Source: Candidatus Aenigmatarchaeota archaeon (lineage in GTDB: Archaea > Aenigmatarchaeota > Aenigmatarchaeia > QMZP01 > QMZT01). Taken from it: a DNA stretch of 64,000 nucleotides. Location of the stretch: the NCBI GenBank assembly GCA_041489155.1, contig JBGPQP010000006.1, forward strand, positions 1,338-65,337, given 5' to 3'. A program made the position numbers and the translations under genes. This document shows, one piece after another, positions 3,201-19,012 of the stretch; the stretch's first letter is position 1; the number at the start of each line of letters is the position of its first letter. The notes beneath the pieces were generated by a model, which did not search any database, was not told where the DNA came from, and worked only from the letters and a program-made list of their open reading frames with translations.

Positions 3201-4453
3201 GGTTCAGGAACACAACTCAGATAGGCAGCGTCAGCGGCTGCCAGGATGACAGCACATGGTATTACACACCTATCTTCAATGAATCCGGATCGTGGACCAT
3301 AAGGCTCGAGGTTTCTGACTCGTATGCCACCTCTTACGACGAGATGACCGTAACCATACTCAACACCAACAGGCCGCCCGAGCAGATATACCCGATACAG
3401 AACCAGACATGGAACATGAACACGGTCGACAGAAACATAATCCTTTCCTACAACTTCCGCGACCTGGATAATGAAAACAGCGTTACTAACGACGACAACA
3501 ACCTGACGATAAATTACATCGGGTCGCAGCATGTTACAGTTCTTATAGACAACCAGGTGCCTCCTGTGACGATATCGTCTTCTGTCTGGACAGGGAAAGC
3601 CATCGTTACTCTAACGCCGCAGAGTGACTGGTACGGCATCGACACCATAGTCTTCAACGTAAGTGATTCCCAGTATGCCGTGAGCAGCAACAACATAACG
3701 CTCAACGTCAGCTACACGGAAACCCAGACGCAGACGATCGTCCAGCAGACCGGCGGAGGTGGTGGAGGTGGCGGTGCGATGGGAACGAAAATCGCCTCTC
3801 TTACGATTACCGTTTCCCCGATGAAGAGGGTAACCTCGTATAACGCGACGCTTGCAAACGTGACTTTCAGGAACTCGGGCGAAGTCCCGCTTAATGGCAT
3901 TTATCTTGAAGCGTATGTGAAGGAAAGCGACGAGATTTCAGCCAGCCTTGACAGAAGCTACATAAGCCAGCTTGGTCTGGAGAACAGCGTCAATGCCACG
4001 CTCAAACTGACCACATACGAGCTGAAGAAGGACGAATACGAAATAAAGCTTACGGGCCGCGTGACCGATCCGAAATTCAACCAGTCGAGCACAATATACA
4101 TAAGGCCCGTCTTCAACGAGACGAAACTCGAGGAGAGGATACAGCTTGCCAGAGACCTCTTCGAGGACAATCCCGAATGCCTCGACCTCATGGAGCTGAT
4201 ACTGCAGGCAGAGAAGGAGCTCGGCAAGGCCAACCTCGAGACGGCGAAGGACCTGACGGAGACTGCGCTTGAAAACTGTCGAGACATAATAAAATACGCC
4301 AACACGACTGCAAGGAAGGTCACGCCGGAAGGCGAGAAATTGCCGCTGAACGAAATACTGATAGTTATGCTTACGATCTCACTTTTCACTATACTTGCTT
4401 ATCTCTGGCTCGAGAGGAGAGCCGAGACTAATAAGGGCAAGGCGAAAGCATGA
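221..4453 (+). CDS. Giant secreted, C-terminally membrane-anchored surface protein with about 7 cadherin-like repeats and extreme N-glycosylation sequon density
   Basis: 1410-aa ORF with ATG at 221. N-terminal hydrophobic segment. Recurring domain-boundary motifs VNDRP, INDRP, INDPP, VNDPP (x2), LNHAP and TNRPP resemble cadherin DxNDxP linkers. A Gly8 linker is followed by a beta-rich segment, a helical segment and a C-terminal TM (ILIVMLTISLFTILAYLWL) with a basic tail. NxS/T occurs roughly every 10 residues. Confidence 0.85.
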   Translation: MKGNAGLYVAVVILVALALLILRPISQITGFFIATTSGTTSLGTWDITDPLAGAYYVYADGSQLGSGPGATTLAVFYANYSNITTGEAINGSNIECNITFNLSGSWTSPARMWFNASAKLYTYNRTFASRSNYYWNTTCYGSAQGYDNLNVINNITVTNTPAGIYVPLPSTNCTEDEICRYNFSQRCYDIDDIDENNLTYGYIAGTEFAGFSINTISGNVTINITTDAGCGSFKVALTVQDPIAEGGNANKSFVVNAVNDRPIMGSVPNASYQNATLTYDINATDEETPGNLTFNFTVLSCYRPFNNQHWSAGNCSDIIIINQTTGIVSRGSVFQNHEVGNYTVNFTATDAGDNLTGTNIPPYSFLANQTDSRTVNLTIIDINDRPLISTVPNQLWTQNQSVSLVIYASDIDNGTLVFSAATLYRNLSAYFNTSLFPISLNETIYLDNGTSLGNATMNFTPVLNGQVGNYTVNISVYDGRANGTYSLLVNFTVTNINDPPNISFSCGNYAVEGLEYACSIGQNTTDPDNFPSYVPYTDSVNSTLAYSLNFTYCNKTFNASDTNCSLFAINSTTGLINYTGPLRSDSGNYTLNISVTDGGGLTTSMLFNLTLVPDYMPNITTGVSSQITTQGQAFLLEINATDLDNATDTLTFRTQTYYTNGTLISPTKFNITTNLTSWPPGPATGVMNYTNVSNSMVGNYTTRVIVNDTWGREDYVTFNLSVYNVNDPPVLNFSCLNYTYEATYYAASRYECYAGQNTSDPDQQTPYGDNLTYSMTFITGPQLFSINSTIGIINFSAANDSWANNTLNFTYVVNITVNDSGGLTNSQTLNITVFAVNDPPVMNMSNTSITANSTFFENLSAGITDEENNAPFIFNVTFVNCSKTNTSDTNCSLFTINQTTGVISFYALEKDMGNYTLNVTARDSGNTTQPYNATGSRLVTFRLLPLNHAPVADIMLLFDQNWNWIPSSIFSENQTVIFSFDASDADSDTLYCTWFRNTTQIGSVSGCQDDSTWYYTPIFNESGSWTIRLEVSDSYATSYDEMTVTILNTNRPPEQIYPIQNQTWNMNTVDRNIILSYNFRDLDNENSVTNDDNNLTINYIGSQHVTVLIDNQVPPVTISSSVWTGKAIVTLTPQSDWYGIDTIVFNVSDSQYAVSSNNITLNVSYTETQTQTIVQQTGGGGGGGGAMGTKIASLTITVSPMKRVTSYNATLANVTFRNSGEVPLNGIYLEAYVKESDEISASLDRSYISQLGLENSVNATLKLTTYELKKDEYEIKLTGRVTDPKFNQSSTIYIRPVFNETKLEERIQLARDLFEDNPECLDLMELILQAEKELGKANLETAKDLTETALENCRDIIKYANTTARKVTPEGEKLPLNEILIVMLTISLFTILAYLWLERRAETNKGKAKA

Positions 4454-4648: not shown

Positions 4649-4796
4649 GCTGGGATGGCGGAATGGTAACGCGCTAGCCTGGAATAAGCCTTTTGACCAA
4701 AAGGCTTAAGCGAAAACCAGCAGCTCACGCTTGCATTTGGTTTGCCAGACAGCTAGTCTCCTTACGGGGTCCTGGGTTCGAATCCCAGTCCCAGCG
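4649..4796 (+). tRNA. tRNA-Ser (GGA) with a 66-nt canonical 37/38 intron (4685-4750)
   Basis: Acceptor GCUGGGA/UCCCAGC, D arm with GG, anticodon stem CUAGC/GCUAG, loop CUGGAA|A, long variable arm CUCC-UUAC-GGGG, T arm CUGGG-UUCGAAU-CCCAG, discriminator G. The intron forms a strict BHB: CUGG:CCAG central helix, bulges AA|U and AC|A, distal helix AAGCC:GGUUU. No encoded CCA. Confidence 0.9.
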
Positions 4797-5586: not shown

Positions 5587-6375
5587 ATGAGCAAAGGCCT
5601 CATCACCGTAAGCACGGACTGGCACGTGATAAGGGAAGGCGACAGGGCCCAGAACTCCACGGACCCGAGGCTGCTGAGGGAGTATCTGAAATGGGGCTAT
5701 CTGGATACGGACAAGGTAATACTCGGGGGAGACATATTTGACCTTGGCAAATCCACCATTGATAAAATAATGTACGGTGACGGCGCATATGTCGATCTGA
5801 TAAAACTTATTCAAAACTATATGAAATACAAAAAGCTGGAATACATCGCCGGCAACCATGACTGGGAAATGACCAAAGAATGGAAACTGAATGACAGGTT
5901 GTATATCCCTGAACAGAAGGTTATGGTGATGCACGGCCATCAGCTTGATGCCAACCCGGGCTTTTCAGGCAAATGCATAGAAAGGACTCTGCTTAAAGTT
6001 CTGGCCTTTCTGGAAAGAACTGTGTGGGAAGACATAGACCAGATTCCTTCTTTCATGGAGAAAAATTTTCACATCGACGCCGAGAGCAGGGAGAAATTTT
6101 TCACCAACTGTCAAAACTACATGAACGCAAGAGGCAGAACAATTCCGAGAAAGAAACATCCGGTCGATACCCTTTTCGTGGGACACATACACGGAAACCC
6201 TGAAACAAGGGCTCTGGAAGATGGCAGAAAAATAGTCAATTGTGGCTGCAACGTCAAAGTTTGCCTGACCAACAAGAAACCTGAAGATGAGCCTGGCAGT
6301 TACAGGTCCGATTATGTGGTACTTGACACCAGAACAGGAGAAATAACCGCGAAGGACATGAGGGACGGTTTTTAA
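5587..6375 (+). CDS. Calcineurin-like metallophosphoesterase
   Basis: Motifs GGDIFDLG, GNHD, HGH and GHIH in canonical order. Confidence 0.75.
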   Translation: MSKGLITVSTDWHVIREGDRAQNSTDPRLLREYLKWGYLDTDKVILGGDIFDLGKSTIDKIMYGDGAYVDLIKLIQNYMKYKKLEYIAGNHDWEMTKEWKLNDRLYIPEQKVMVMHGHQLDANPGFSGKCIERTLLKVLAFLERTVWEDIDQIPSFMEKNFHIDAESREKFFTNCQNYMNARGRTIPRKKHPVDTLFVGHIHGNPETRALEDGRKIVNCGCNVKVCLTNKKPEDEPGSYRSDYVVLDTRTGEITAKDMRDGF

Positions 6376-8526
6376 TTATTTTTCCTTAATGTGGGAAGGT
6401 TTCGATGCCGCCTGCTGAGCCTTTTCTTTTCCCGCTGGGGCTTTCTCTTCCTTTGTCGCAGCTGTCTTTGCACCTTCTTTTGTCGCGTCACCCTTCCTGT
6501 TCACGAAGCCGCATTTGACGCAGAGCTTCCATGGACGGCGCTTGAACTGCTTCACCTGGATGATGTTGAGGCCGCAAGTGGGGCATTTCTCGTCCGTCGC
6601 GGATACGTAGCCTTTCTGCGGCAGCGGGAAGCTCTGCCTGCACTTCGGGTAATTGGAGCAGCCGACGAAATGCTTCTTGGTAATGTGCGAGCGGATTATG
6701 CGCAGCTCGCCCTTGCATGCGGGGCATACGCCGACAAAATGAGCCATCTCCTGGAATTCCTTCACGCCTTCCTTGAGTTCGGAGCCTATGTGCATCTCGT
6801 GCTCCTTGAACTTCTGGAGCGTTTTCTCCAGCTCTTTCCTCGCGTTCCCGACGATTTCATCCCTCTTCCTTTTACCCTCCTGGATGAGCTCGATCTCATG
6901 GTCAAAAGTCTTGGTCAGCTCTTCGGAGATTATCTCAGGGCAGTGCTTCTCGAGCGCTTCGATTACCGCAGAGCCAAGCGCAGTCACCCTTATCGACTTG
7001 TCCTTTATGTATTCCCTGTCGTAAAGCGTCTGGAGTATTTGCGCGCGCGTCGCTTTCGTGCCCAGGTTCTTGTCCTCCATGGTCTTGAGGATCGAGGCCT
7101 GAGAGTAGCGGTCGGGCGGCGTTGTCTCCTTCTCGTTGAGCTTTACATCAGGCTTGTCGACGTTCTGGCCTTGCGTCATCTCGGGCAGAAGCTGCTCCTT
7201 GAACTTCGCGTACCTGCCGTAGAATTCCATCCACTCGGGTTTTATGGTTGTTGCGCCGAAGGCCTTGAATTTCTCGCCATTGACGTCTATCGCCACGGTC
7301 ACCCTTTCGCGTAGCGCGGGATCGGCGAACGTCGAGAGGAATCTCCTGACTATGATGTCGTAGATGTTCTGCTGGTACTTGCCGAGCTTCGCAGGCTTAA
7401 GGCCGGTCGGGAAAACGCTTGGGTGGGCAGGGTCGTCCTTGTCTCCCTCGATCGGGATGAACTTGCCCTTCTTGATCAGCCTGCCGCAGAGCGCGGCGTA
7501 TTCGCCCTGCTCCGCCAGCTTTTCAATTATTGCCCTGAGGCCCAGCTTCTGGGGCAGCTTCTGGCTAGACGTCCTCGGATAGGAAATAAGCGCATGCTCG
7601 TAGAGATTCTGGGCTATGTCCAGCGTCATCTTCGGGGAATAGCCGAAGTTGTTGAACGCCTCGCGCTGCAGCGTGGTGAGGTCGAAAGGCGTCGGCGGGA
7701 GCTGCTTTACAATCTTCTTTTCGATCTCGTGAACGGCTGCTTTCTTGCCGGTGCATCTCTTTAGGATGGTCTCGGCCTGCCCCTTTTCCCAGAATTTATC
7801 GGCTTCATGGAGCGCGGTTATCTTCTTGCCGTTCACCAGGCCATGGAGCTCGAGCGTCCAGAACAGCTCTGGCACGAATCTCTCGATTTCCCGTTCGCGA
7901 TCCTCCAGGATCTTCAGCGTCGGGCCCTGAACTCTTCCGATGGACAATGTCCAGTAGCCATTCGCCTTTTCCAGCGCCAGCGTAAGGGCGCGGGAAAGGT
8001 TGATGCCCCACAGGAAATCAAGCATGTGCCTTGTCAGGCCTGCCTCTATCTGGGGGAAATCGAGATGAGGCGTTGCGTTGGCATAAGATTCAAGTATGTC
8101 CTTGTCCGTAAGCGTGGAGAATTTCATGCGCCTGCCGTCTTTCGCGTTGCATATGAAGCGAATGATGTTGTAGGCGATGGTCGAGCCTTCGATGTCGTAG
8201 TCGCATGCAGAAACGAAATCAGTCGCGCCCTTCGCGAGTTTGGCTATGTTCGCGTAGTATTTCTGGGCCCATAAATTGTCCTTGTCGTCGAATGTCGGCC
8301 GCCATTCGACGTCGAAGACGGGATACGTCCATTTCGCCTTCTTTCCTTTCTCGTCCAGAACGAAAAGATGTCCGACAGCAGGGACGACAACTATGTCCTT
8401 GCCGCCATGCCTCAGCCTGAAGTATATCACGCTCTTGCCACTCTTTTCTACCTTGCCTTCGGCAAGCGCGTAAGCAATTCTTTCCGCTGCGCTGGGCTTT
8501 TCCGCTATGACGAGCGTATAGGACAT
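6376..8526 (-). CDS. topA: Type IA DNA topoisomerase with C-terminal zinc ribbons and a Lys-rich tail
   Basis: N-terminal TOPRIM (LVIAEKPS...DYDIEGS), central topo IA core, and CPACKG...CSNYPKC...CPTCG...CVKCG zinc ribbons. Confidence 0.9.
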   Translation of the reverse strand: MSYTLVIAEKPSAAERIAYALAEGKVEKSGKSVIYFRLRHGGKDIVVVPAVGHLFVLDEKGKKAKWTYPVFDVEWRPTFDDKDNLWAQKYYANIAKLAKGATDFVSACDYDIEGSTIAYNIIRFICNAKDGRRMKFSTLTDKDILESYANATPHLDFPQIEAGLTRHMLDFLWGINLSRALTLALEKANGYWTLSIGRVQGPTLKILEDREREIERFVPELFWTLELHGLVNGKKITALHEADKFWEKGQAETILKRCTGKKAAVHEIEKKIVKQLPPTPFDLTTLQREAFNNFGYSPKMTLDIAQNLYEHALISYPRTSSQKLPQKLGLRAIIEKLAEQGEYAALCGRLIKKGKFIPIEGDKDDPAHPSVFPTGLKPAKLGKYQQNIYDIIVRRFLSTFADPALRERVTVAIDVNGEKFKAFGATTIKPEWMEFYGRYAKFKEQLLPEMTQGQNVDKPDVKLNEKETTPPDRYSQASILKTMEDKNLGTKATRAQILQTLYDREYIKDKSIRVTALGSAVIEALEKHCPEIISEELTKTFDHEIELIQEGKRKRDEIVGNARKELEKTLQKFKEHEMHIGSELKEGVKEFQEMAHFVGVCPACKGELRIIRSHITKKHFVGCSNYPKCRQSFPLPQKGYVSATDEKCPTCGLNIIQVKQFKRRPWKLCVKCGFVNRKGDATKEGAKTAATKEEKAPAGKEKAQQAASKPSHIKEK

Positions 8527-8596
8527 AATACTATTAAAACCAGCTCATGTTTAAAAGTTTTCGCTGCTTTTTCACTGCTCAGGGCCTAAAATCACG

Positions 8597-8851
8597 TTAA
8601 ATCTTGAAGACAAGGTCCCCTTCTCTTACCCTGTCGTTCACCTTCATGCCGACCGCTTCGCCCTTCTTGGCCTCACTCACGTTCTTGTGCTCGACCTGCA
8701 TCGACTCTATCCTCTGCTGCACGTTCGTCGACGTCCCTTCGATCGAGATCTCGTCGCCGACCTTTATGGTGTGCTCGACGTCAATGACGGCGACGCCTAT
8801 CTTCGTGAAGTAATGCCTTACCTTGCCTACGAGCTTCTTTTCCCCTTCCAT
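8597..8851 (-). CDS. Small stand-alone beta-barrel protein resembling EF-Tu domain 2
   Basis: 84 aa. GKVRHYFTKIGVAVIDVEH.IKVGDEI.I.G......I.SMQ.......A..G..VG..V.....GD.V pattern, typical of translation-factor domain II. Confidence 0.6.
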   Translation of the reverse strand: MEGEKKLVGKVRHYFTKIGVAVIDVEHTIKVGDEISIEGTSTNVQQRIESMQVEHKNVSEAKKGEAVGMKVNDRVREGDLVFKI

Positions 8852-8890
8852 GCTTTATTCCTTGGAAAAGGGGCTTAAAAATAAATATGA

Positions 8891-9049
8891 TGCGGGAGCA
8901 GGGATTCGAACCCTGGAACACATGCCTCGCGCTTCGCTAAGCGAATGCTTCGCAAAGGCGCCCTAAGTGAGCAGGTCTTGAGCATCGACATCATCTTGAA
9001 TCAGAGTTCAAGACCATTCTACCGCCTTTGACCACTTGGCTACCCCCGC
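8891..9049 (-). tRNA. Class II tRNA, probably tRNA-Leu (CAA), 159 nt with two insertions (about 8983-9017 in the anticodon arm, about 8922-8962 in the variable arm)
   Basis: Acceptor GCGGGGG/CUCCCGC, discriminator A, Leu-type D arm GCC-AAGUGGUCAAA-GGC, intact T arm CAGGG-UUCGAAU-CCCUG, loop CUCAAGA followed by CCUGC, variable arm U-CAC-UUAG...GUG-UUC. Exact splice sites were not resolved; no strict BHB was found by hand. Confidence 0.6.
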
Positions 9050-9075
9050 ATTATAGAAATTGCAGAAACAGCTTA

Positions 9076-9600
9076 TTAACCTATCGCCCTCAGCTGCGCC
9101 CTGAGCTTCTCCAGCTGGCCGTACACGTTTTTCATGTGGTCCTCGACCTCGCCCCTTTCTTCCGGTTCGAGGTCCTCTTCCTCGTAATCCTCCGGCCTTT
9201 CCATTGCCTGGGGCTTCATGAAGAACGCATCGAGGTTCGATGTTAGCTCGTTGAGTTCGTCGAGGGTTTTTTGCGCGATTTCTATGCCATTTGCCACTTC
9301 CCTCTGCATGTCCCTCAGAACGTCAAGCGCATCCCTGAGGTTGAGGATGTAAGAGCGCAGATCGCGTATATTTTTAACGATGGCCCTGTACTTGTCGACT
9401 TTTATGAAAAGCGGCGGAGATTGCGTCGAAGGCGTTGGTCTTGGCGCGGGCGCTCTGGGAGCAGGAGCCCTCTTTATCTCTGGCAGTTGTACAGAGGGAG
9501 AGTAGTTTTCCTCTGCCGGTTGCTGTTCAGAATCAGCTTCTTTCTCTTCCTCTGGCTGCAGCTCCTTTATCTCCTTTGCCTTGCTTTTAAAGAGCTTCAT
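9076..9600 (-). CDS. Hypothetical protein: acidic/Pro-rich disordered N-half plus coiled-coil C-half
   Basis: Start moved to ATG 9600 (MKLFKSKAK); the track ORF ran into the tRNA-Gly gene. PAPRAPAPRP linker, then heptad-like LFIKVDKYRAIVKNIRDLRSYILNLRDALDVL... Confidence 0.6.
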   Translation of the reverse strand: MKLFKSKAKEIKELQPEEEKEADSEQQPAEENYSPSVQLPEIKRAPAPRAPAPRPTPSTQSPPLFIKVDKYRAIVKNIRDLRSYILNLRDALDVLRDMQREVANGIEIAQKTLDELNELTSNLDAFFMKPQAMERPEDYEEEDLEPEERGEVEDHMKNVYGQLEKLRAQLRAIG

Positions 9601-9653
9601 AGTAATTATTTCCCGCGCGTCAATAAATATATTAATTTCGCCACTGTTCCGCA

Positions 9654-9793
9654 TGCGTCGGCCGGGAGCTTCAGACGGAAACAGACGAAGTCTGCTTCAT
9701 GCGCCTTTTGAACCCGGGCTACAGGCTTGGCAAGCCTGTGTCCTATTGCCCATTCGCTCTCGCGAAGCGAGCACCAGGCTAGACTACCGACGC
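9654..9793 (-). tRNA. tRNA-Gly (GCC) with two non-canonical introns: D-loop (9746-9773, 28 nt) and T-loop 59/60 (9668-9706, 39 nt)
   Basis: Acceptor GCGUCGG/CCGACGC, D stem GUCU/GGAC, anticodon arm CAGGC-UUGCCAA-GCCUG, T stem CCGGG/CCCGG. Removing both insertions gives a 73-nt cloverleaf with T-loop UUCAAAU. Both insertions can be drawn with BHB motifs. Confidence 0.85.
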
Positions 9794-9877
9794 ACAATTT
9801 CGATGGACGACCTGAAATATAGAGTCAAATCGTCAATCGCTGTTTGGTAATAATTTTTGCTTTGCTGGATTTAAAGC

Positions 9878-10174
9878 TTAGCCGAACAGGGCCCCGAAAC
9901 CTTCGGCAGCGGAGTCTTCCTGCTCCTTTATCTTCTTCAGCACCTCGTCCTTCTCATGGCCGGCGACTTCCTTCCCCTTGTCGCCGATAAGATGCTTCGC
10001 CTTCTCTATCGCCTCGTGGGAGCCGTCAATCTCAAGGTAATAGCCGTCCTTGTTGAAACCGAGCGCTCGGGCTTCCCTGAAATTTATCGTATGCCTCGAC
10101 ACAGTATCGTCTGCGTAAAGCAGGTTCTTGACTCCTGAATAATGCTCCATGGTTATGAAGAAAACCGTCTTCAT
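9878..10174 (-). CDS. 98-aa protein with a ribosomal-stalk-like C-terminal tail (..EQEDSAAEGFGALFG)
   Basis: ATG 10174 preceded by GGAGGU at a 6-nt spacing; the longer track start is unsupported. The beta-rich N-domain is unlike aP1. The last 7 residues, GFGALFG, resemble the conserved aP1 tail GLGALFG. Confidence 0.7.
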   Translation of the reverse strand: MKTVFFITMEHYSGVKNLLYADDTVSRHTINFREARALGFNKDGYYLEIDGSHEAIEKAKHLIGDKGKEVAGHEKDEVLKKIKEQEDSAAEGFGALFG

Positions 10175-10261
10175 GCTCTTACCTCCTGAACATAACATTC
10201 GTTTTATTATCTGAAATATTTCGCGCAAGAATTAATATTTATTCCCTGCCGGTTTTTCAGG

Positions 10262-11731
10262 TTAATCCTGTCCCCCGTAATATTTCTGGCCCTGATAGCC
10301 TCCATAACCATAATCCTGGCCTGGCGAAGTTTTCGCTTTCTTGAAGGCGAAGATTATCAGGACCACGGCGACTATTATTATTACCGGTATTGCCACCAGC
10401 ATCCAGTTGAATCCCGCCGGTTCAGAAGGTTCAGGTTCGTTATTGCCGTTGCCATTGCCGTCTCCGCCGTTATTCACCTTAAGGTCGTCGAGCGTCTCGA
10501 TAAACTTCTCCGCTTCAAGGATGTCTTCCCCGTATGAGGTCTGGTTGTATTTTTGCTCATAGGCGTTTTTCTCTTCTGTTATTTTGTCCTTGAGGCTCGG
10601 GTTAGAGCTCGCGGCGTCTTCAGCGTACCTGACCGCGTCCGTGAGCAGCTCGCCTATCGAAAGGTAGGCGGTCGCAATCTTTTCGTTGTTGTTATTCATC
10701 ACTTTGAACTCAAGCCTGTAGAGCTTCTCGCTGCCAGGCGTGACGCTGAACACCGCGGTTACTTCGTCTCCCTTCTCCACCATAAAGGTCTTTTTCTTCG
10801 GGTCTATGGTAAGCTCCTTGTCTGAGCTGGCTTCTACGGTGAAGTTTTGTGTAGCCTCCTGGTTGGAAACCACCACCCTGAACAAGACCTCATTCGGAGT
10901 CTTCAGGTTTATGTTCTGCGGTATGACGCGAGCGTCAAAGCCAAGCCTTTCCGTGTCGCTGACCCTTACTATGACGTCCTGCTGCTTCTTGCAGGCCTTC
11001 ATGTCGCAGCCGTCGACCTGCGCCATTATAGTCATGGTGTAGTTGCCCTCGCTGTCAGGCGCCTTTATCTTGAAGGCCTTGCTGATCATCGGCTTCGAGG
11101 ACGATGTCGTCACGACCGGCGTTCCGAAATCGTTCTGTAGATTAGTCGCTATAGACAGCCTTATCCTTATGTTCGCATAGGAGGTTATGTAAAGGGTCTT
11201 CGAGAGAAGCTCGCCTCTCTTCGCGATAATCGGGTCTTCTGTGAAGCTCAGGTCGATGATATCGGCGTTTTCGCTGAGCAGCTTGCACACATCGGACCTG
11301 TTGCTCAACTCGAGTCCTGTGTCAACATCGTCGTAATTCGAGACGCATATGCCGCCGGAAATAGAATTGGAAACGCCAAGTTCAAGGGAGGAAAGGCGGA
11401 TGTTGTAGAAGGAGAAGTCGCCCTCCTTCTTTTCTGAATAATAGAAGCACACGGGGTTCTTGTTCATCATGCCCGGACTCAAAATCACCTTGTTGTACGT
11501 CGTCTCCGCCCAAGGGCTTGCATCCTTGCTGACCTCGATTATAGTCTCAGTCTCGCTGTCAATGCTGCTCATGCCGAGGTCCTGCGGCAGGCTGACATAA
11601 ACGCACTTGTAGCCTGTTCCCGGCTGCACTGAGAAAATCGTACCGGTGTCAAGTGCCTGCACAGATGAAACAAAAATAAATACAGAAAACACGAGCAGCA
11701 TCCCAAGGGCCAAGGACAAAGACGGTTTCAT
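10262..11731 (-). CDS. Secreted surface protein with a C-terminal TM anchor
   Basis: Signal peptide (..VSSVQA|LD), beta-sandwich-like region, helical segment, GDGNGNGNNEPEPSEPAGF linker, TM WMLVAIPVIIIVAVVLIIFAF, Gly/Tyr-rich cytoplasmic tail. Confidence 0.75.
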   Translation of the reverse strand: MKPSLSLALGMLLVFSVFIFVSSVQALDTGTIFSVQPGTGYKCVYVSLPQDLGMSSIDSETETIIEVSKDASPWAETTYNKVILSPGMMNKNPVCFYYSEKKEGDFSFYNIRLSSLELGVSNSISGGICVSNYDDVDTGLELSNRSDVCKLLSENADIIDLSFTEDPIIAKRGELLSKTLYITSYANIRIRLSIATNLQNDFGTPVVTTSSSKPMISKAFKIKAPDSEGNYTMTIMAQVDGCDMKACKKQQDVIVRVSDTERLGFDARVIPQNINLKTPNEVLFRVVVSNQEATQNFTVEASSDKELTIDPKKKTFMVEKGDEVTAVFSVTPGSEKLYRLEFKVMNNNNEKIATAYLSIGELLTDAVRYAEDAASSNPSLKDKITEEKNAYEQKYNQTSYGEDILEAEKFIETLDDLKVNNGGDGNGNGNNEPEPSEPAGFNWMLVAIPVIIIVAVVLIIFAFKKAKTSPGQDYGYGGYQGQKYYGGQD

Positions 11732-11783
11732 ATAATTTAATTTGTCTTCTGTGTAATATATATTCTCTGGAAAAGCCGGAACT

Positions 11784-12590
11784 CTATTTCTTGCTTTTGC
11801 TTCCCTTCATTTTCCAGAAGGCCAGCAGGCCAGCGATTACGATGACCGCAGCAAGGAAAACGATGATTAATAAATTATTATCCAAAATGCTCGTTGGGCT
11901 GCCGCCTGCCATCTCACCGGTCACCGTTATTTCTTTTTGGATAGTTTTTTCAGCGAAACCTTCTTTTGAAAGAACCACTCTAATGTTCATGATGTCAGGG
12001 TCAGCCTTGAAACTTGCCAGGCCTGTTGTGAAGTAAAGGTCTTTGAAAGTATCATCGTAGACAAGATAGCCTTTTATTTCCGAGTTTTGAGGGCATTCTA
12101 CCTTCACGTAGACAGTTTCTCCTGCATCAAAAACGAGGCCCACATCATCACATGCTGTGTCGTAGCAAATAACCGCTTCGCAATCGCTGAAGCTGTCTAA
12201 TGCCCCTGCGACATAGAACGTCGTCGTTTTTTCACCTATAACATTGTCTGATTCGTAAATTCTGACAGAATGTACGTATGTCCCTGATTTTGAATACTCA
12301 CTAACATCAAAACTTAAGTCGGAAATCATGGTATTGTTGTTAGGTTCAATAACGAATGTCTCATAAAGCGGCATTGGCTCTATTCCCGGGTAAATCAGAT
12401 ATTGTTCAACGGTTATGTTCACCTGTGTGCTTTCATTATTTACTAACACGGTTCCCAAATCTACGGAATCTCCCGAATAAAAGGTCTCGCCATTTACATC
12501 TTGGAAGTTTACGATTTCCAGAGAATAGGCTGATGAGGTTAAAAGGATAAATATCATCATTGAGAACAGCATAAAGTCTTTAAATGACAT
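11784..12590 (-). CDS. Secreted protein with a C-terminal TM anchor
   Basis: Signal peptide MSFKDFMLFSMMIFILLTSSAYS|LE. C-terminal TM LLIIVFLAAVIVIAGLLAF followed by KMKGSKSKK. Confidence 0.7.
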   Translation of the reverse strand: MSFKDFMLFSMMIFILLTSSAYSLEIVNFQDVNGETFYSGDSVDLGTVLVNNESTQVNITVEQYLIYPGIEPMPLYETFVIEPNNNTMISDLSFDVSEYSKSGTYVHSVRIYESDNVIGEKTTTFYVAGALDSFSDCEAVICYDTACDDVGLVFDAGETVYVKVECPQNSEIKGYLVYDDTFKDLYFTTGLASFKADPDIMNIRVVLSKEGFAEKTIQKEITVTGEMAGGSPTSILDNNLLIIVFLAAVIVIAGLLAFWKMKGSKSKK

Positions 12591-12605
12591 TTATTCACCT
12601 CTGCT

Positions 12606-15600
12606 TTATTTACATATACATCCGGTTCTATGAGTCATATCGTAAGGGTCTTTCGGAATGCATTCCTTTTCCGGTGGTATTGGCTTTCTGCAATCTTTGC
12701 AGTAACACTGGCCACCAGATATTCCCGTTACTACATTCTTGTAACTGCCATCTCTTTGTTCGCAAGAATCTCCAAGCTTTTTCTTTTCGCCATAAGGTCC
12801 TTGGCAATCGATCAGTGAACATTTTTCAGTAATAGGGTCTTCTTGATAGCCATATACACACATGCATCTACAATCATTGCCGTAATTTTGCCAAATCGGG
12901 CAGCAATCTTTTTCGCAATTTTTTTGTGAATTGCATGTGAATGTTGATGTTGGCTTACATGGCTGATTTACCTGTTTGTCGCTGTTCTTTCCAACTCCAC
13001 ATCTGTTATCAGTTACCGCCGGGATTGTTGGTTGTTGTTGTGTCGGTTGTGTTGGCTTTGGTTTTGTAATGTCTTCAGTGACGCAACACTTTCCTTTAAT
13101 GCGATCATTACAGCATTTTTCAACTTCTTCGTTTGTAGTCTTTAAGTTGCAATCAGAACAATATTTAGCTGACGTAGCTGTGCATCCTTCAGCTATTTCT
13201 TCTACGAATGTGCATTTTTTTGTCTTCCTTTCACAGTTTGTTTTGCCTTGCGAATCTGCATAGCAGTAATAATCGCCCTTTATCTTTTTCTCGCTGTAGG
13301 TAAGGTCGACTTTCTGCGGCAGGGCGAGCTGTATGGTCGGGTCGCCAAGCAGCATGTAGTTCGGCTTGTAGCCTTTTTCGGCAAATCTTGATTTTATCAC
13401 GTTGCTGTTAATCGATGAAATAAGGGCATTGCCGAGGTCATATCCTAGGCCATCGGCTTTGCTTCCCAGTATGCGCGAGCTTATCTCTGGCCCCGCATGG
13501 CTGTAACGAGTGGGACTGACTGCCCCATAAAAGGCTAGCACGCCATGTCTTATGAAGTCTGTTCCCAAGAGATTGTTGTTTGTTGATGAATAATAATCAA
13601 GGCTTGAACATGTAGCTGCGACTACGACCGATGAGTTGAACTCCTGCTCGAGCGGGGTTTCTATTTTGGCTGCTGACCAGCTGTTGGCATTGCCGTCATC
13701 ATCGTATATTATGATATCCTGCTCTGTCAGGACATTTTTGTCGGCATAGCTAAGAATGTCATAATAAGATTTGAGCGGGCTGCAGGCAGGCGACTGCAAA
13801 GATGAATAAAGTTTATCATCAAAGAAGCATTTGACATCGTATAAATTGTGATTGTTGCTATCCTTCAAAGCAATTAATTTTTTGGCAAACTCATCAACGT
13901 AGCCTTGGTAGTCAACAAAGTTGGCAGCCAGCATACCGATGTTTTTATATTCGCTGGTTTGGCCTGCTTCTGATACATAAGAAAAACCATTTCTGGAAAA
14001 AGTTATAACCCTGCTCACATACACCGATGTGTCTGTAACCGTTGTGCCGAATATTCTGCCAACGGCTTTGCCTTTCGAATATTCTATGTCAAGCGGCTCC
14101 CTTATCTCCAAAATCTTTCCCTTTTCGCTGCCTTCGTATTCTTTGCAGTCTTTGTATTTGCTGAAGGGGATCGCTCTCGGCGAGGCAAGCACAGTGAGGT
14201 ACATGTTTTGGTTACTTGACATGTCCACTTGTTTTTTCATGTCCTTCTTAACGCTTTCTGAAGCACTTAGTATAGAGTCTTCGAATTTCTTCTTTTCAGG
14301 GCTCAGCTGTTCGTATTTGACGCATTTATCTTCCGCTTCTGTTTCGCTTGTCTTGACGCCTTTTTCAAGAGGCTCCACGTCAGTGAAAACTATCAACTCG
14401 TTTTTGATGCTGGCGAGAATGGGCGCAACAAGGGAGTCCTTGCAGTGGGATTTTGAAAGTTTGCCGAAATCGGTATAGTATTTGAAACTCTCGCAGCTGC
14501 TGTCCTCTATGTCCTTCGGGTTCACCAGAATGGCTTTGTTTGGTTCCATTACTCTCGTGTAATATTGCTGCAATTCCGATAAGGTAAGATTCATGGAGCA
14601 CTTGTCGTACTGGACGTTTCCTATGCAGTAAACGTGGAAGCCTTCGTTTGGCTCCGAGCCTCCTTTTTGGAAGCCTCCCAACTTATTTACTGCATCTCTG
14701 TATTCTTTGACTTCAGCGGCATCAAAAAAGAGCGGGGAATTGATGGATGACGCGAAAAGGCTTGATATGAGGCCGGTTTTATAGTCCTTTTCTGAAAAAA
14801 CAATTCTTTCTATATTGTTGTTATAATAATAGTCTGCCTGCATCTCGCCAAAATTAAACCTATTTTCGGCAGTATCACTGTTATCATTTTTCATTGAAAG
14901 TAGCATTAGAGATGTATTATACCCGTATTTTTCAAGCGCAGATAGTAATTTTTGCGAAACAGGGCCGTTATGATATATGGCAACAGATCTATGTCCATAT
15001 TGTCTCAGAAAAATGGGAATCTGTTCAAAATCGATTTGCTCGCCTTCCCTGTGATATATGATGGTTGGACCGTAAAGTATATGTTTTTTCATCTCTTTCA
15101 TCCACGCGTCTGATGGCGGCTGTAATTTTGTTTCAAGGGCTTTGGGCACATAATGCCGTGTCGTAATCGGAATGATTTTAAGGACATCCATCCAGTTGGT
15201 ATCGTCTATTAAATTGACCCAGCCATCGTCTGCAATGTCCATGCCTCCGGTTTCCTCTGTTTCAGTGCCCGTAGAACATGAATTTCCATGCTCACTTATC
15301 AGTTTTTTTATGCCATCTGACAATTTTGTGAGTATGTTGATAATATCCTGAGGCGAAGGCTCGCTGTTTATTTCGATTGGCTTTATTTCGTTCTCAAGGA
15401 AACTGATGAAAGGGCCGCACGATGACACGTGGAAATAGCCAAAGCGCATCTTGCCGCCTACCTTCGCGTAGTAGACCAAGACATTATAGGCAGCGTTTCC
15501 GCTTGTTCTCATGCCGAGCGTCGCATAGGACTTGTTGCCCGTAGTTTCAAAGGAAGCATCATCAGCCTGAGGCGTGTCGATTATCAATCTTATCAAAACA

Positions 15601-15788
15601 CTGTTGTTCTGCTCGAGGCCTGTGATTATGCTATTTGCCTGGTCCCTGTATGAACCAAGCATGCCGAGGTTATCCGTTATCTTATCTTCGCTCTGCGCCG
15701 CAACAAGAAACGGCGCGATGAGAAGCAAGATGAGCAGCGGTGTTGTGATCAAAAACAAGGCGCGGATAGCTTTTGATTTCATATTCAT
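12606..15788 (-). CDS. 1060-aa secreted protein: possible C25 (gingipain)-like domain plus a Cys-rich C-terminal module
   Basis: Sec signal (..PFLVAA|QSE). VVVAATCSSLDY and NYMLLGDPTIQLALP resemble the C25 catalytic-Cys strand and C-terminal motif, but the expected GH is GN (DDDGNANSW). The last ~230 aa carry dozens of Cys in EGF-like spacing, interrupted by a PTQPTQQQPT linker. Confidence 0.7.
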   Translation of the reverse strand: MNMKSKAIRALFLITTPLLILLLIAPFLVAAQSEDKITDNLGMLGSYRDQANSIITGLEQNNSVLIRLIIDTPQADDASFETTGNKSYATLGMRTSGNAAYNVLVYYAKVGGKMRFGYFHVSSCGPFISFLENEIKPIEINSEPSPQDIINILTKLSDGIKKLISEHGNSCSTGTETEETGGMDIADDGWVNLIDDTNWMDVLKIIPITTRHYVPKALETKLQPPSDAWMKEMKKHILYGPTIIYHREGEQIDFEQIPIFLRQYGHRSVAIYHNGPVSQKLLSALEKYGYNTSLMLLSMKNDNSDTAENRFNFGEMQADYYYNNNIERIVFSEKDYKTGLISSLFASSINSPLFFDAAEVKEYRDAVNKLGGFQKGGSEPNEGFHVYCIGNVQYDKCSMNLTLSELQQYYTRVMEPNKAILVNPKDIEDSSCESFKYYTDFGKLSKSHCKDSLVAPILASIKNELIVFTDVEPLEKGVKTSETEAEDKCVKYEQLSPEKKKFEDSILSASESVKKDMKKQVDMSSNQNMYLTVLASPRAIPFSKYKDCKEYEGSEKGKILEIREPLDIEYSKGKAVGRIFGTTVTDTSVYVSRVITFSRNGFSYVSEAGQTSEYKNIGMLAANFVDYQGYVDEFAKKLIALKDSNNHNLYDVKCFFDDKLYSSLQSPACSPLKSYYDILSYADKNVLTEQDIIIYDDDGNANSWSAAKIETPLEQEFNSSVVVAATCSSLDYYSSTNNNLLGTDFIRHGVLAFYGAVSPTRYSHAGPEISSRILGSKADGLGYDLGNALISSINSNVIKSRFAEKGYKPNYMLLGDPTIQLALPQKVDLTYSEKKIKGDYYCYADSQGKTNCERKTKKCTFVEEIAEGCTATSAKYCSDCNLKTTNEEVEKCCNDRIKGKCCVTEDITKPKPTQPTQQQPTIPAVTDNRCGVGKNSDKQVNQPCKPTSTFTCNSQKNCEKDCCPIWQNYGNDCRCMCVYGYQEDPITEKCSLIDCQGPYGEKKKLGDSCEQRDGSYKNVVTGISGGQCYCKDCRKPIPPEKECIPKDPYDMTHRTGCICK

Positions 15789-15828
15789 ATTTATTCATAT
15801 TTAGACACATATTATTAAATAATTATTT

Positions 15829-17646
15829 ATGAAGGCGATGAAGGCGCAGGTAGAATTCATAGTCATCTTCGCCCTGATAGCCGTCGCAGCCGTGGTGATT
15901 CTGGTTTCTTCGAGGCTATTCGTCATCGGCGACACGAATCCAGCGATAACCGGAACCGAGCAGGAGAAAAAGTTAGTGAGCGATTCCATCCTTAACGCGA
16001 TAAGAAACGCGGCTAAAGACGAACTGAAAGAGATATACCAAACCGGCGCCTCCGAGGCAGCAACTAGGAAAATCAAGTACAGCATGAAAGACATCGGCGT
16101 ATGGCAGGACTGCGATCTTACGCAGACGCCGAACGTCGAACGGCTACTCCGGAACAAAATAGAAGAAAGTTTAACGACGATATTCAAGCCTGAGATGGAG
16201 TTTTTCGGCAAGAAAGTTTACTTCGATGTCAGGAACATAGACGTCATTGTAAAGCTGCAGGACGGCGGCGTAAATATAGACGTGAACATGCCGACCGTTG
16301 TCGAGAATTCGAGCATAGCGCAGCCTTATAGCATAGTCGTTCCCTCGAAGCTGAAGAAGATACTTGAGACCAGCAAGGAGATAACCGACAGGAACAACGC
16401 ATCGAGCTTCTTCGAAGTGGCGACTATCAATTCAATTCTGCATTCGAACCCCGAAATCGTGGACGAGTGGCTGCCGACCATCGATTTGAAGACCGGCTGC
16501 TGGAACGCGCTTTTCAAAACCGAGCAGGAAGCAGCCAATACACTGGAGACCTTTGCCAAATACACCGCAAGCCACACGGTATACAACAGGCAGGTTATGG
16601 AAATACCGGACAATCCCTTTTACGTCTTCGGGGTTTCCGATTCTGACATTAACGTATCATTCATATACCCGGATGAATGGGACATGACAAGCAACATCGA
16701 AATCACGCCCAATCCTCTTGTTTTCTATCCGAAACCCATTCTCTCTTTTTCATCGGTGTGCATTGAAACGACCGACGTCCGCTATTCGATGAGATATCCT
16801 GTGATCGTCTCAATAAAGGACGATGCGATGGGAGAGCTGTTCAATTTTGTACTCATGGTGAACATAGATGATAACCAGCCGGGCTGCGGTTTTGTCAAAG
16901 GGACTAAAGCGCCTTATTATGAAAAATGCTTTTTGGAAAGCGGTTGCCCGGTCACCATAAATGTAAAGGATGCGAACGGCCTTCCGCTTCCGAATGCGCT
17001 GGTTACATTTGGCGAATGCTCGCTGGGATGGACCGACTATGCTGGCGCCCTTAGCTCGCTGGCTCCATGTATGATAGGCGAGCTTGCTGCGCACAAGGAA
17101 GGCTACAAAGAATACAGGAAACTGATGAAGGCATCTGACCTGCGCGATTATGCGATAGCGATGGAGGCAGAAGGCAAGGAGATGACAGTCCACTTTTACG
17201 GCGTCCCGCTCAAGTCAGGGGAATACATGGGCGGCGGCAGATACGTTGACTATGCTGTTTCCGGTCAGGGAAGGGAGATGAAGCTTTTCGATGAGGAGTA
17301 TTTTGTCCTCGTGTACATGAAGCCCAGGGAAGGCGAAAACGTGATGCTTTACAACCTTGACGCCAGCGGTTTCACGTCGGCGTCAAAGGCGATGATAAAT
17401 AGCGGTTCGTACGACATGTTCGGCGCCGTGGTGAACAACATGACAGGCGATACAGTCGGCTACATAGAATCAGCCTACCTTTCCAGCGGCAATGAAAACG
17501 AGCTTTATGTCTATCTGCCTCTTGTGGAAAACCTCCATGAGGCGCTACAGCCGAGCGAAATATACAAAATGAAAGCTGCGTTTGGCGAATGCAATCTAAA
17601 CGTCGTGAGCGCCAGCCAGCAGAACGTGAGCGTGCCATGTGGTTGA
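15829..17646 (+). CDS. Large extracellular protein with a type IV pilin-like (class III) signal peptide candidate
   Basis: N-terminus MKAMKA|QVEFIVIFALIAVAAVVILV: basic, then A|Q, then E at +3, then a hydrophobic helix. Internal CarboxypepD_reg-like stretch VTINVKDANGLPLPNALVTFG. Confidence 0.7.
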   Translation: MKAMKAQVEFIVIFALIAVAAVVILVSSRLFVIGDTNPAITGTEQEKKLVSDSILNAIRNAAKDELKEIYQTGASEAATRKIKYSMKDIGVWQDCDLTQTPNVERLLRNKIEESLTTIFKPEMEFFGKKVYFDVRNIDVIVKLQDGGVNIDVNMPTVVENSSIAQPYSIVVPSKLKKILETSKEITDRNNASSFFEVATINSILHSNPEIVDEWLPTIDLKTGCWNALFKTEQEAANTLETFAKYTASHTVYNRQVMEIPDNPFYVFGVSDSDINVSFIYPDEWDMTSNIEITPNPLVFYPKPILSFSSVCIETTDVRYSMRYPVIVSIKDDAMGELFNFVLMVNIDDNQPGCGFVKGTKAPYYEKCFLESGCPVTINVKDANGLPLPNALVTFGECSLGWTDYAGALSSLAPCMIGELAAHKEGYKEYRKLMKASDLRDYAIAMEAEGKEMTVHFYGVPLKSGEYMGGGRYVDYAVSGQGREMKLFDEEYFVLVYMKPREGENVMLYNLDASGFTSASKAMINSGSYDMFGAVVNNMTGDTVGYIESAYLSSGNENELYVYLPLVENLHEALQPSEIYKMKAAFGECNLNVVSASQQNVSVPCG

Positions 17647-17647
17647 G

Positions 17648-19012
17648 ATGAAAGAGAGATACGTAATCTTGATAGCAGCGGTGATTTTTTCAGCCATGCT
17701 AAGCACTGGCGCTTTTGCAGAAGAGTTCAAGGTACTAGAAGTCTCGAAAAACGATGTTTATTGCCAGCTGCTGAATTACGACCTCGAATGCCAGCTGCTT
17801 GATAACCAGATTTCAGTGGTCATAAGAAGCGACGCAAAAGACATGGACGCAGATTTGCAGCTCAGTTGCGGCAGCAAACAGATTAAAGCATACGCCGGCA
17901 GGTGCAACCACACAGGCAATGTTTACAAGTGCTATTTCAGTCTCGAGCCTCTGATCGACCTCGACAAGGCGTCTGCGCTCGAATGCTCGATGAACTTCTA
18001 TTTTTACAAGAAGCTTTCAAACGAGTCTATAGGCAGCGACAAGTACGAAGGGAAGTTCGTGATAACGCCGCTTTCCGAGACCTCGCTGCTCAGCCTCTCC
18101 AAGCAGAAAACCAAGCTGCGCAATGATTTCATCGCCGTCAAGAGCTTTGACATGGAAGCGATCTACAACTCGGGCATCTGCTCCTATCTGGGAACAGGCA
18201 TATTTTTCAGTCGGATTGGAGACTACGAAAACGCCTTCAAAACCCTAGGCGGCTTCGTCGCATCAGCGCAGACAACTTCAGCAAGGTCTGTAAACCTCCT
18301 GAGCAATTCGAGCGTGCTAGCGTCCGTTTATGCTGAAAACGGCGACTTCTTGTTTGAGATGCTGCTGGAAAACTTCCTGCTCCATGGCCTGCACACGGGC
18401 AGCTTCATAAGCGATATTCTCTACCATCTTGAGGAAGGCTACATAACAGGCAGCGTGTTCGAAAACATGCAGAGCGATGTCGACGCAAGCTGCATGAAAA
18501 TACAGAACAACTTCGACCAACTGCTTAACCCGAACTTCCTTGTGATGCAAAAGATGAAACTGCTCGACTGCCTGGAGAAAAGGGATTTCAAGAACTGCTG
18601 GAAGAAGCTTGCTGAGATGGAGAATTATGTGAACCCGGGCAACTCGCCCCAGAGGGCGGAACTCAGGTTTTACGTCGGCAACAGGCTGATGAGGGACAAT
18701 TCTAATTTGTGCAACGGCAGCACTATAAGCATTGCCTACAGCGAGCTCGAACGGTATGGCGTCGATAAGATAACTGTGAAGGGCGATGGCAGGTACAAGC
18801 CATGCGACAACACGATAAACCTCGACTTCACCATGAAAGACGAATACACCGTCAGCGAATTCCTCTGTGAAGAAGGGAATGAGCCGGCTGATGGCAAAAG
18901 GTATGCGATAGAGATCGACCCGGGTGCAGCGGGGAGCAAGATAGCCTACAACGTTAACTATTACGCCGACCCTGAGAACTGCAGGGTGCAGCAGGAAATA
19001 ATTCCCGTTTGA
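17648..19012 (+). CDS. Secreted hypothetical protein
   Basis: ATG 17648, one nt after the upstream stop; the track start 17639 is GTG. Signal peptide MKERYVILIAAVIFSAMLSTGAFA|EE. Cys-containing. Confidence 0.65.
   Translation: MKERYVILIAAVIFSAMLSTGAFAEEFKVLEVSKNDVYCQLLNYDLECQLLDNQISVVIRSDAKDMDADLQLSCGSKQIKAYAGRCNHTGNVYKCYFSLEPLIDLDKASALECSMNFYFYKKLSNESIGSDKYEGKFVITPLSETSLLSLSKQKTKLRNDFIAVKSFDMEAIYNSGICSYLGTGIFFSRIGDYENAFKTLGGFVASAQTTSARSVNLLSNSSVLASVYAENGDFLFEMLLENFLLHGLHTGSFISDILYHLEEGYITGSVFENMQSDVDASCMKIQNNFDQLLNPNFLVMQKMKLLDCLEKRDFKNCWKKLAEMENYVNPGNSPQRAELRFYVGNRLMRDNSNLCNGSTISIAYSELERYGVDKITVKGDGRYKPCDNTINLDFTMKDEYTVSEFLCEEGNEPADGKRYAIEIDPGAAGSKIAYNVNYYADPENCRVQQEIIPV

Follow-up and report, generated by a model that had tools for sequence, protein, structure and literature searches.

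In the Thermoproteales, which are hyperthermophilic crenarchaea, a single tRNA gene can carry several introns with a bulge–helix–bulge (BHB) motif; the tRNA-Pro(UGG) of Pyrobaculum islandicum, for instance, is interrupted at 25/26, 37/38 and 56/57 (Sugahara et al., 2007/2008, cited in PMC4090602 and PMC4033280). Among the DPANN archaea, ARMAN-2 has a tRNA-Cys with an intron at 59/60 and a tRNA-Pro with introns at 53/54 and 59/60, and its EndA, which is of the epsilon2 type, has been shown to cleave a 59/60 substrate in vitro (PMC3239211). The nuclear pre-tRNA-Ile(UAU) of Cyanidioschyzon merolae contains D-stem, 37/38 and T-loop introns, and the removal of its D-arm and T-loop introns was shown by reverse-transcription PCR (Soma et al., 2013, PMC3728597). 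A natural population of Caldiarchaeum subterraneum is heterogeneous in intron number at the tRNA-Thr(GGU) locus (Sugahara et al., 2012, PMC3293823). Finally, the 'L3' insert of the alpha4-type EndAs of DPANN archaea has been associated with increased tRNA disruption, and hidden disrupted tRNAs were suspected in this group (Kaneta et al., 2018, PMC5829648). Here, we describe a tRNA-Gly(GCC) gene that is interrupted both in its D-loop and in its T-loop, in a stretch of 64,000 nt (the window) of contig JBGPQP010000006.1 from a Candidatus Aenigmatarchaeota (DPANN) archaeon. The gene occupies positions 9654–9793 of the window on the minus strand, and the 140 nt precursor RNA written out in the original prediction, which was made from the sequence without any database search, is the reverse complement of this interval letter for letter. 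On the strength of the sequence comparisons presented below, we consider it very probable that the gene is functional and that the archaeal EndA/RtcB pathway removes its two introns.

The closest described case is in several respects that of ARMAN-2: the host is a DPANN archaeon, the 59/60 site is used, the motifs are either relaxed or strict hBHBh′ (a central helix H with a bulge on each side, set between an outer helix h and a distal helix h′) and two introns interrupt one tRNA. However, ARMAN-2 belongs to the Micrarchaeota and not to the Aenigmatarchaeota, and its second intron is in the T-loop, whereas here it is in the D-loop (19/20). The likeness to the Thermoproteales lies in the presence of several BHB introns per tRNA at noncanonical sites (including 20/21 and 59/60), in the high load per gene, in the occurrence, elsewhere in the lineage, of related introns across tRNAs and positions in a transposition-like manner and in the failure of standard tRNA finders on both. 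With introns at 19/20 and 59/60 the gene has at least two introns, at least one of them noncanonical, as do genes of the Thermoproteales type. The hosts differ, a hyperthermophilic crenarchaeon being replaced here by a mesophile-like DPANN genome with a G+C content of 49% over the window. The gene of C. merolae likewise combines D-arm and T-loop introns, each with a BHB-type motif, but it is eukaryotic and nuclear and is served by another enzyme, so that the likeness is one of design and not of descent. The noncanonical archaeal sites listed in the part of a review consulted here include 20/21 and 59/60 (PMC4090602). The label 19/20 is absent from that part of the list, but since it is sequence-equivalent to 20/21 we do not claim a new site. 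A limited literature search returned no open-access article dealing with tRNA introns in Aenigmarchaeota. The original prediction held that two introns disrupting both loops of one tRNA are rare. They are indeed uncommon across archaea generally, but seven of the 17 variants of this same gene (see below) carry D-loop and T-loop introns together, and multi-intron tRNAs with D-arm and T-loop introns have already been described (PMC4090602, PMC3239211, PMC3728597), which tempers the claim. By itself, the gene merely adds to the multi-intron tRNAs of archaea, a kind already known from the Thermoproteales and, for the 59/60 site, from ARMAN-2.

We read the precursor as three exons and two introns, as follows.

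9774–9793 (−): exon 1, with the acceptor 5′ strand, U8 A9, the D-stem strand GUCU and the D-loop from A14 to G19 (GCGUCGGUAGUCUAGCCUGG); identical in the intronless L002/L003
9746–9773 (−): D-loop intron, 28 nt, site 19/20 (UGCUCGCUUCGCGAGAGCGAAUGGGCAA); an exact 28 nt indel relative to L047 and L002
9707–9745 (−): exon 2, with U20 A21, the D-stem strand GGAC, the anticodon arm, the variable loop UAGC, the T-stem 5′ strand and U54–A59
9731–9729 (−): anticodon GCC, within exon 2
9668–9706 (−): T-loop intron, 39 nt, site 59/60 (AGGCGCAUGAAGCAGACUUCGUCUGUUUCCGUCUGAAGC); strict hBHBh′ with a unique cut position
9654–9667 (−): exon 3, with U60, the T-stem strand CCCGG, the acceptor strand CCGACGC and the discriminator A73

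Removal of the 28 nt and 39 nt segments leaves a 73-mer that ARAGORN calls as tRNA-Gly(gcc), while the removal of either one singly gives no call. Nor does the unspliced gene, which ARAGORN does not call and which has no tRNA match among all Rfam families at the gathering score, at E ≤ 1 (window) or at E ≤ 10 (251 nt). The minimum free-energy (MFE) structure of the spliced 73-mer is the cloverleaf (−35.7 kcal/mol, z = −3.9), and none of 200 shuffled sequences is as stable. The predicted product is identical at 72 of 73 nt to the intronless orthologues L002/L003 of Candidatus Aenigmatarchaeota MAGs, the sole difference being an A for a G in the variable loop. These orthologues were scored in place of the spliced 73-mer and reach 69.8 bits against the Rfam tRNA model (gathering score 29), so that the covariance-model check proposed with the original prediction is passed by proxy. 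The identity as tRNA-Gly(GCC) asserted there is thus borne out by the ARAGORN call, the cloverleaf and the match to intronless genes. The 39 nt exon 2 is 100% identical in L001 and 97% identical in the orthologues L002/L003/L005. Exon 3 ends at A73, and CCA is not encoded.

The gene was compared at 25 loci: the window, eight related genomes (L002–L009, in which it lies upstream of the topoisomerase gene) and 16 metagenome loci obtained by a contig scan with the 19 nt start of exon 2 (22 matches, of which L034, L036 and L041 were excluded as being without a tRNA acceptor or T arm, and L048–L050 as a different, intronless tRNA-Gly). These loci represent 17 distinct variants with 0–4 introns each and 29 introns in total, all of them at 15/16, 19/20, 29/30, 37/38 or 59/60; two variants, from five loci, are intronless. 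The mature parts amount to seven distinct sequences, with 100% cloverleaf pairing and one compensatory change (U4–A69 to C4–G69), and the mature sequence of the window is that of L047. Two loci, L047 and L044, are close to the window, with about 64–65 mismatches each over approximately 1.4 kb (roughly 95% identity). L047 (434–582) has no D-loop intron and a 75 nt T-loop intron with both ends as in the window and about 36 additional nucleotides in the apical loop. L044 (542–709) has the D-loop intron, identical over its 28 nt, together with a 66 nt T-loop intron of unrelated sequence. In the alignment the 28 nt D-loop block is absent from L047 and L002, and the 59/60 block is missing from L002/L003/L008, with sequences at this site varying elsewhere. 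Homologues of the D-loop intron (29 nt) and of the T-loop intron (38 nt) are found in L006/L042 and L009/L043, respectively. Because intronless orthologues match the product at 72 of 73 nt and because close relatives differ by exact blocks, the two insertions are far beyond what chance would produce. Moreover, since L047 and L044 differ in intron content at about 95% identity, the introns at this locus turn over at about the species level. The case recalls that of Caldiarchaeum, in that close genomes differ in the introns of one orthologous tRNA, which points to recent gain or loss; however, the variants there numbered two or three, with a transposable element implicated, as against 17 variants with 0–4 introns at five sites here.

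The canonical archaeal BHB motif reportedly goes back to Marck and Grosjean in 2003. In this motif a 3 nt bulge follows each strand of the 4 bp helix H, and cleavage takes place behind the second bulge nucleotide (summarized in PMC4090602). We applied this fixed register to each sequence-equivalent cut of each intron. Over the 29 introns, 110 of the 116 H pairs form in the splice register and 23 introns have H complete (4/4); with the 3′ partner displaced by 1–4 nt, 28–60 of the 116 pairs form and a complete H is never obtained. For h′, the first three pairs form in 63 of 87 instances in register versus 28–37 of 87 when slid. Among the introns for which a single cut is possible, H is 4/4 in six out of eight and 3/4 in the other two. 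In the window gene the central helices are located as follows (the bar marks the cut).

9709–9712 (−): T-loop central helix H, 5′ strand, U54 U55 C56 A57, then the bulge A58 A59|A
9670–9673 (−): T-loop central helix H, 3′ strand, UGAA (in the intron), then the bulge GC|U60
9776–9779 (−): D-loop central helix H, 5′ strand, G15 C16 C17 U17a (GCCU), then the bulge GG|U (9775–9773)
9748–9751 (−): D-loop central helix H, 3′ strand, GGGC (in the intron), then the bulge AA|U (9747–9745)

At the T-loop, H (UUCA:UGAA) forms 4/4 pairs, h is the T stem (5/5) and h′ (GGCG:CGUC) forms 4/5. The textbook hBHBh′ announced in the original prediction, with its AA|A and GC|U bulges, is therefore present in strict register in all of its parts. 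Across the orthologues the 3′ strand of H reads UGAA, UGGA, UGGG or UGGC, and pairing with UUCA is kept except in two UGGC cases. A CRISPR-DR24 match in Rfam (13.3 bits, E = 5.9; 9668–9691, plus strand) falls inside this intron and was discarded as a chance hit, being present in a single copy with no array.

At the D-loop, the predicted helix GCCU:GGGC (4/4) with its GG|U and AA|U bulges is also found, and of the two sequence-equivalent cuts 19/20 alone suits the BHB register, as 20/21 gives an H of 1/4. The flanking helices each form four of five pairs, with the first position of h and the second of h′ unpaired. The description of the motif as a relaxed BHB can be retained, whereas the four nucleotides GAAU said to lie unpaired beyond the central helix need not be so: a strict-register h′ (GCUCG:CGAAU, 4/5 pairs), which is unaffected by a 1 nt insertion in L006, stands as a candidate beside the h′ proposed earlier. 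The energy model gives −57.0 kcal/mol for GCUC..GAGC with GAAU unpaired, −57.3 kcal/mol for a CUCGC:GCGAG hairpin and −49.9 kcal/mol for the strict-register version. The A14×A21 mismatch in the outer helix had not been mentioned. The motif fits the 'relaxed BHB' category, for which a broad-specificity EndA is needed. Four intron sequence types occur at 19/20 among the orthologues (28, 29 and 16 nt, and an unrelated one of 31 nt in L039), and the 3-4-3 core is in register in all of them. At 19/20, the introns of L006 and L046 likewise end in GGGC NN|U, as do both D-loop introns of L007 (15/16 and 19/20).

If both motifs are recognized, EndA would cut each bulge behind its second nucleotide, the three exons would be joined by a ligase of the RtcB type and the introns would be released, probably as circles; CCA, which the gene does not encode, would be added after splicing. 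As the two motifs are compatible with each other and have no overlap, they could be processed independently, with no order imposed in the window gene. Before splicing, U54–A57 and G15–U17a would be held in the H helices and G19 kept apart from U20. As the elbow nucleotides (G18, G19 and U54–A58) would thus be sequestered or separated while either intron remains, the L-shape, and any modifications that depend on it, would be expected only after splicing. We infer cleavage and ligation, the type of enzyme and the order of events from the junctions, which are exact, from the BHB register, from exon conservation and from the presence or absence of introns among orthologues.

Several observations weigh against processing by EndA and RtcB. 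The support for splicing comes from DNA sequence and its comparison, not from RNA, and no Pfam match to the EndA or RtcB families was obtained among the open reading frames (ORFs) of at least 110 aa in the 64 kb window. The MFE structure of the full precursor (−69.7 kcal/mol) has neither central helix; it pairs CCUG with UAGG, extends into the D-loop intron and abolishes the D stem, while −50 to −62.6 kcal/mol is the best obtained for structures in which the cloverleaf stems are combined with the two BHB cores. The isolated arms fold like the full precursor, with no central helix and with a non-BHB fold favoured in the D arm. In the T-loop arm, the MFE structure recovers h and h′ but not the A/U-rich H, whose strands face each other in a symmetric internal loop. 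An A/U-rich H left in an internal loop by folding programs is usual for BHB motifs. In the D-loop motif, the A14×A21 mismatch precedes a D stem of 4 bp, and h′ has either a mismatch (C×A, 4/5 pairs) or, alternatively, 4–7 unpaired bases. Finally, the GGGC found in three of the four 19/20 sequence types may reflect shared ancestry and not independent selection. We have not counted thermodynamics as support: the argument rests on the register with its slide control and on the comparative indels.

One alternative is that only the T-loop insertion is a standard EndA intron, the D-loop insertion requiring prior events (T-loop splicing, recognition of the tRNA body or a chaperone) or leaving by an inefficient or different route. 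Both helices that flank the D-loop core are imperfect, and the energy models prefer the CCUG:UAGG pairing and its extended intron helix to the D-loop BHB in the precursor and in the isolated D arm. The D-loop intron is thus predicted to have a truly competing fold, and the motif is therefore termed 'relaxed'; whether it is recognized is likely to hinge on the enzyme and on the other parts of the tRNA. Still, the central helix of the D-loop is worth about −6.4 kcal/mol (−57.3 with versus −50.9 without). The 3-4-3 core is exact in three or four unrelated or diverged introns at this site (28/29, 16 and 31 nt), the genes that carry this intron retain fully conserved exons, and the two motifs, being non-overlapping, do not require each other. 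Relaxed motifs at noncanonical sites are, moreover, the norm in archaea with a broad-specificity EndA (PMC3239211, PMC5829648). We therefore regard a special status of the D-loop insertion as improbable.

It is more unlikely still that the gene is a decaying pseudogene with two insertions that are never removed, a functional tRNA-Gly copy being located elsewhere in the genome. The failure of ARAGORN and Rfam to recognize the unspliced gene is what a pseudogene would give, and the span examined covers 64 kb of the genome. However, the exons are identical to those of L047 despite a divergence of about 5% in the flanks, all 17 variants have a perfect cloverleaf with one compensatory change, the BHB register of both insertions restores the tRNA exactly and the locus is syntenic with the sole tRNA-Gly(GCC) seen in the loci of the relatives. 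In addition, interruptions of this sort affect all six tRNA genes of the window, and they cannot all be pseudogenes.

The insertions could have been assembly or chimera artefacts, the window being derived from a metagenome-type assembly, but this has a negligible probability: a separately assembled contig of the Joint Genome Institute (JGI; contig 3300052989, Ga0534152_0001017, 11.5 kb), which is 99.97% identical to positions 6249–17791 of the window (three mismatches in 11,543 nt), contains the identical 140 nt precursor, and the D-loop intron in L044, its homologue in L006/L042 and the T-loop homologues in L009/L043 and L047 come from other samples. The absence of the insertions from independent assemblies, which the original prediction had named as a possible refutation, is consequently not what is seen, and introns homologous to both insertions are present in other metagenome-assembled genomes (MAGs) and metagenomes. 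Self-splicing group I or II introns were rejected on account of the lengths (28 and 39 nt) and of an Rfam search of 9600–9850 at E ≤ 10 that gave no catalytic core, and a split or permuted tRNA gene was rejected since the three exons follow one another in order on a single strand, in a span of 140 nt.

With a functional two-intron gene as the preferred reading for the window, its relatives extend the series further. A tRNA-Gly(GCC) with four introns is found, with the same sequence, at L007 (4459–4725) and L032 (647–914), one a GTDB MAG and the other a JGI contig. The precursor is 267 nt long and has introns of 56 nt (15/16), 16 nt (19/20), 56 nt (37/38) and 66 nt (59/60); each of the four occurs singly in other genomes. 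The parse of the L007 D-loop was set by comparison with L004 and L046, each of which has one of its D-loop introns alone. The 19/20 motif has an H of 3/4 before removal of the 15/16 intron and GUCU:GGGC after it, and the outer helix is completed likewise, so that the sequence would impose an order of splicing in this gene, 15/16 ahead of 19/20. Ordered splicing of this sort has already been described for crenarchaeal genes (PMC8450103). The maximum number of introns per archaeal tRNA is given as three in reviews and in the tRNAscan-SE 2.0 paper, and three is also the published maximum per gene for the Thermoproteales; the four introns of L007/L032 exceed it.

Disruption is not confined to tRNA-Gly. 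Six tRNA genes were identified in the window and all six have introns, about nine in total. ARAGORN finds none of them; Rfam finds three and part of a fourth, just under the threshold, and the Gly and Thr genes are missed by both. The five others are listed here.

4649–4796 (+): tRNA-Ser(GGA), one intron of 66 nt at 37/38
8891–9049 (−): tRNA-Leu(CAA), introns of 35 nt at 30/31 (H 4/4) and of 40 nt in the variable-arm loop (H 3/4)
21504–21599 (+): tRNA-Met(CAU), initiator-like, with a 21 nt strict hBHBh′ intron at 59/60
27289–27452 (−): tRNA-Thr(GGU), with a relaxed D-loop insertion of about 38–40 nt and, at 37/38, an intron of about 52 nt (UAAGCUCUUUAGGAAAGAGCUUAGGCAGAA...)
48633–48771 (+): tRNA-Pro(CGG), with a 67 nt D-arm insertion

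The Met gene has the initiator-like traits A1:U72 and three G–C pairs at the base of the anticodon stem. Its intron (UUCA AA|A CCUU...AAGG UGAA AA|U) repeats the design of the T-loop intron of tRNA-Gly; Rfam scores the gene at 44.2 bits with a 22 nt insertion. For tRNA-Leu(CAA), brute-force single deletions followed by ARAGORN gave ambiguous isotypes, and the gene was assigned by hand from compensatory changes in the anticodon stem relative to L003 (G27–C43 and U28·G42 in the window versus A27–U43 and U28–A42). Its variable-arm intron is absent in L003, L038 and L010, and the orthologues in L008 and L009 have an extra insertion in the region of the D-loop. The 30/31 intron contains CUGA and then GAUGAUG, which resemble a D-box and a C-box in reversed order. 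The Thr gene was found by a crude scan with acceptor-stem and T-arm seeds, which also recovers the tRNA-Gly gene with its 39 nt T-loop insertion; it lies immediately upstream of a gene for a TruB/Cbf5-like pseudouridine synthase (27495–28283). In tRNA-Pro(CGG), Rfam sees only positions 10–63 (28.9 bits), and 70 nt separate the D-arm match from the acceptor 5′ strand, GGGGCCG, located upstream of it. Cuts at 10/11 and 12/13 were rejected, with no BHB in register; the most likely cut is at 15/16 (GUGU AG|C UAAGCCC ... CUGC AA|U, H 3/4, checked by eye).

Some of these introns are related to one another. The 37/38 intron of tRNA-Ser(GGA) shares 92% identity over 52 nt with its tRNA-Gly counterpart at 37/38 in L045 (1803–1854) and 94% over 35 nt with those in L007 (4568–4602) and L032 (757–791). 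A two-hairpin module (AAGCCUUUU...AAAAGGCUU, then AAGCGAAAA...CGCUU) recurs in the Gly introns at 15/16 and 37/38; in the 15/16 introns of L004 and L007 it consists of AAGCCUUUU–loop–AAAAGGCUU followed by AAGCG...CGCUU, and a diverged form is present in the Thr and Pro introns of the window. A single intron family is therefore present in different tRNAs and at different positions, a pattern that resembles the transposition reported for the Thermoproteales. For the two Gly introns of the window, the one likeness seen to introns of other tRNAs or positions is the ending GGGCAA|U of the D-loop intron, which is that of the L007 15/16 intron.

We may wonder at this stage whether the lineage is an undescribed hot spot of archaeal tRNA-intron mobility. 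The intron load, at least as high as in the Thermoproteales, the turnover at about 95% identity, the shared intron family and the four-intron allele speak for it, and in our judgement the proposal stands at even chances. If it is true and unreported, these genomes offer a natural series of presence/absence alleles in which to study the mechanism of BHB-intron insertion, and alleles with 0–4 introns at five fixed sites would give a comparative handle on how, and how fast, such introns are gained, lost and exchanged. A practical consequence concerns annotation: because standard tools miss or under-call intron-bearing genes, tRNA complements and statements on 'missing tRNAs' or completeness will be wrong for Aenigmatarchaeota, and probably for other DPANN MAGs, unless BHB-aware tools tuned to the clade are used. 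The interest thus lies mainly in the intron polymorphism, the four-intron allele and this annotation blind spot, and less in the gene itself.

The window is an ordinary stretch of archaeal chromosome. Its ORFs include PCNA, aEF-2, the ribosomal proteins L4, S19, L22, S3, S17 and S8, and MetRS, as well as the TruB/Cbf5-like pseudouridine synthase, an S-layer-like protein and glycosyltransferases. A topoisomerase IA gene (6376–8526, minus strand) lies 1.1 kb downstream of tRNA-Gly. The closest relatives of its product are from Candidatus Aenigmatarchaeota or 'uncultured archaeon' MAGs (75–86% amino-acid identity), and the next tier (44–49%) is from Nanoarchaeia, Woesearchaeota and similar DPANN bins. 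Upstream of tRNA-Gly, one further element can be listed.

9814–9823 (−): A/T-rich box UCUAUAUUUC, spanning −30 to −21 relative to the tRNA 5′ end; candidate archaeal TATA box

The box sits where an archaeal TATA box is expected, which is suggestive of a promoter. It is also present in L044 and L047, with two substitutions in each, and the other orthologues have an A/T-rich stretch at a comparable distance from the tRNA 5′ end.

Beside the tRNA-Gly gene there was no sign of a mobile element, and exon 2 had no match when viral contigs were scanned for it. A scan of the same kind for the tRNA-Gly 3′ end gave one, in the provirus-like IMG/VR contig L051. This contig has a 3′ partial tRNA-Gly(UCC) of about 48 nt, from the anticodon stem to the discriminator (3784–3832, minus strand), directly upstream of a tyrosine integrase gene (2477–3646, minus strand; Pfam Phage_integrase, 7.7e-16); the last 23 nt of the partial tRNA are the T arm and acceptor strand of L009/L043, and a matching 5′ acceptor strand was not found within 600 nt. 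The partial tRNA looks like an attachment (att) site, and L051 shows in this way that tRNA ends of this kind serve as integration targets. The idea that introns protect against integration by breaking att sites is compatible with L051, which is suggestive in this regard and not a proof.

On the other side of the gene, an ORF of 192 aa with no Pfam match (9076–9654, minus strand) has a start ATG that overlaps the discriminator base of the tRNA. A second A/T-rich box, AAAUUAAUAUAUUUAUU (approximately 9637–9621), precedes an ATG at 9599, which is more likely to be the true start of this ORF, and the same box may double as the terminator region of tRNA-Gly. The JGI annotation adopts the long form of the ORF.

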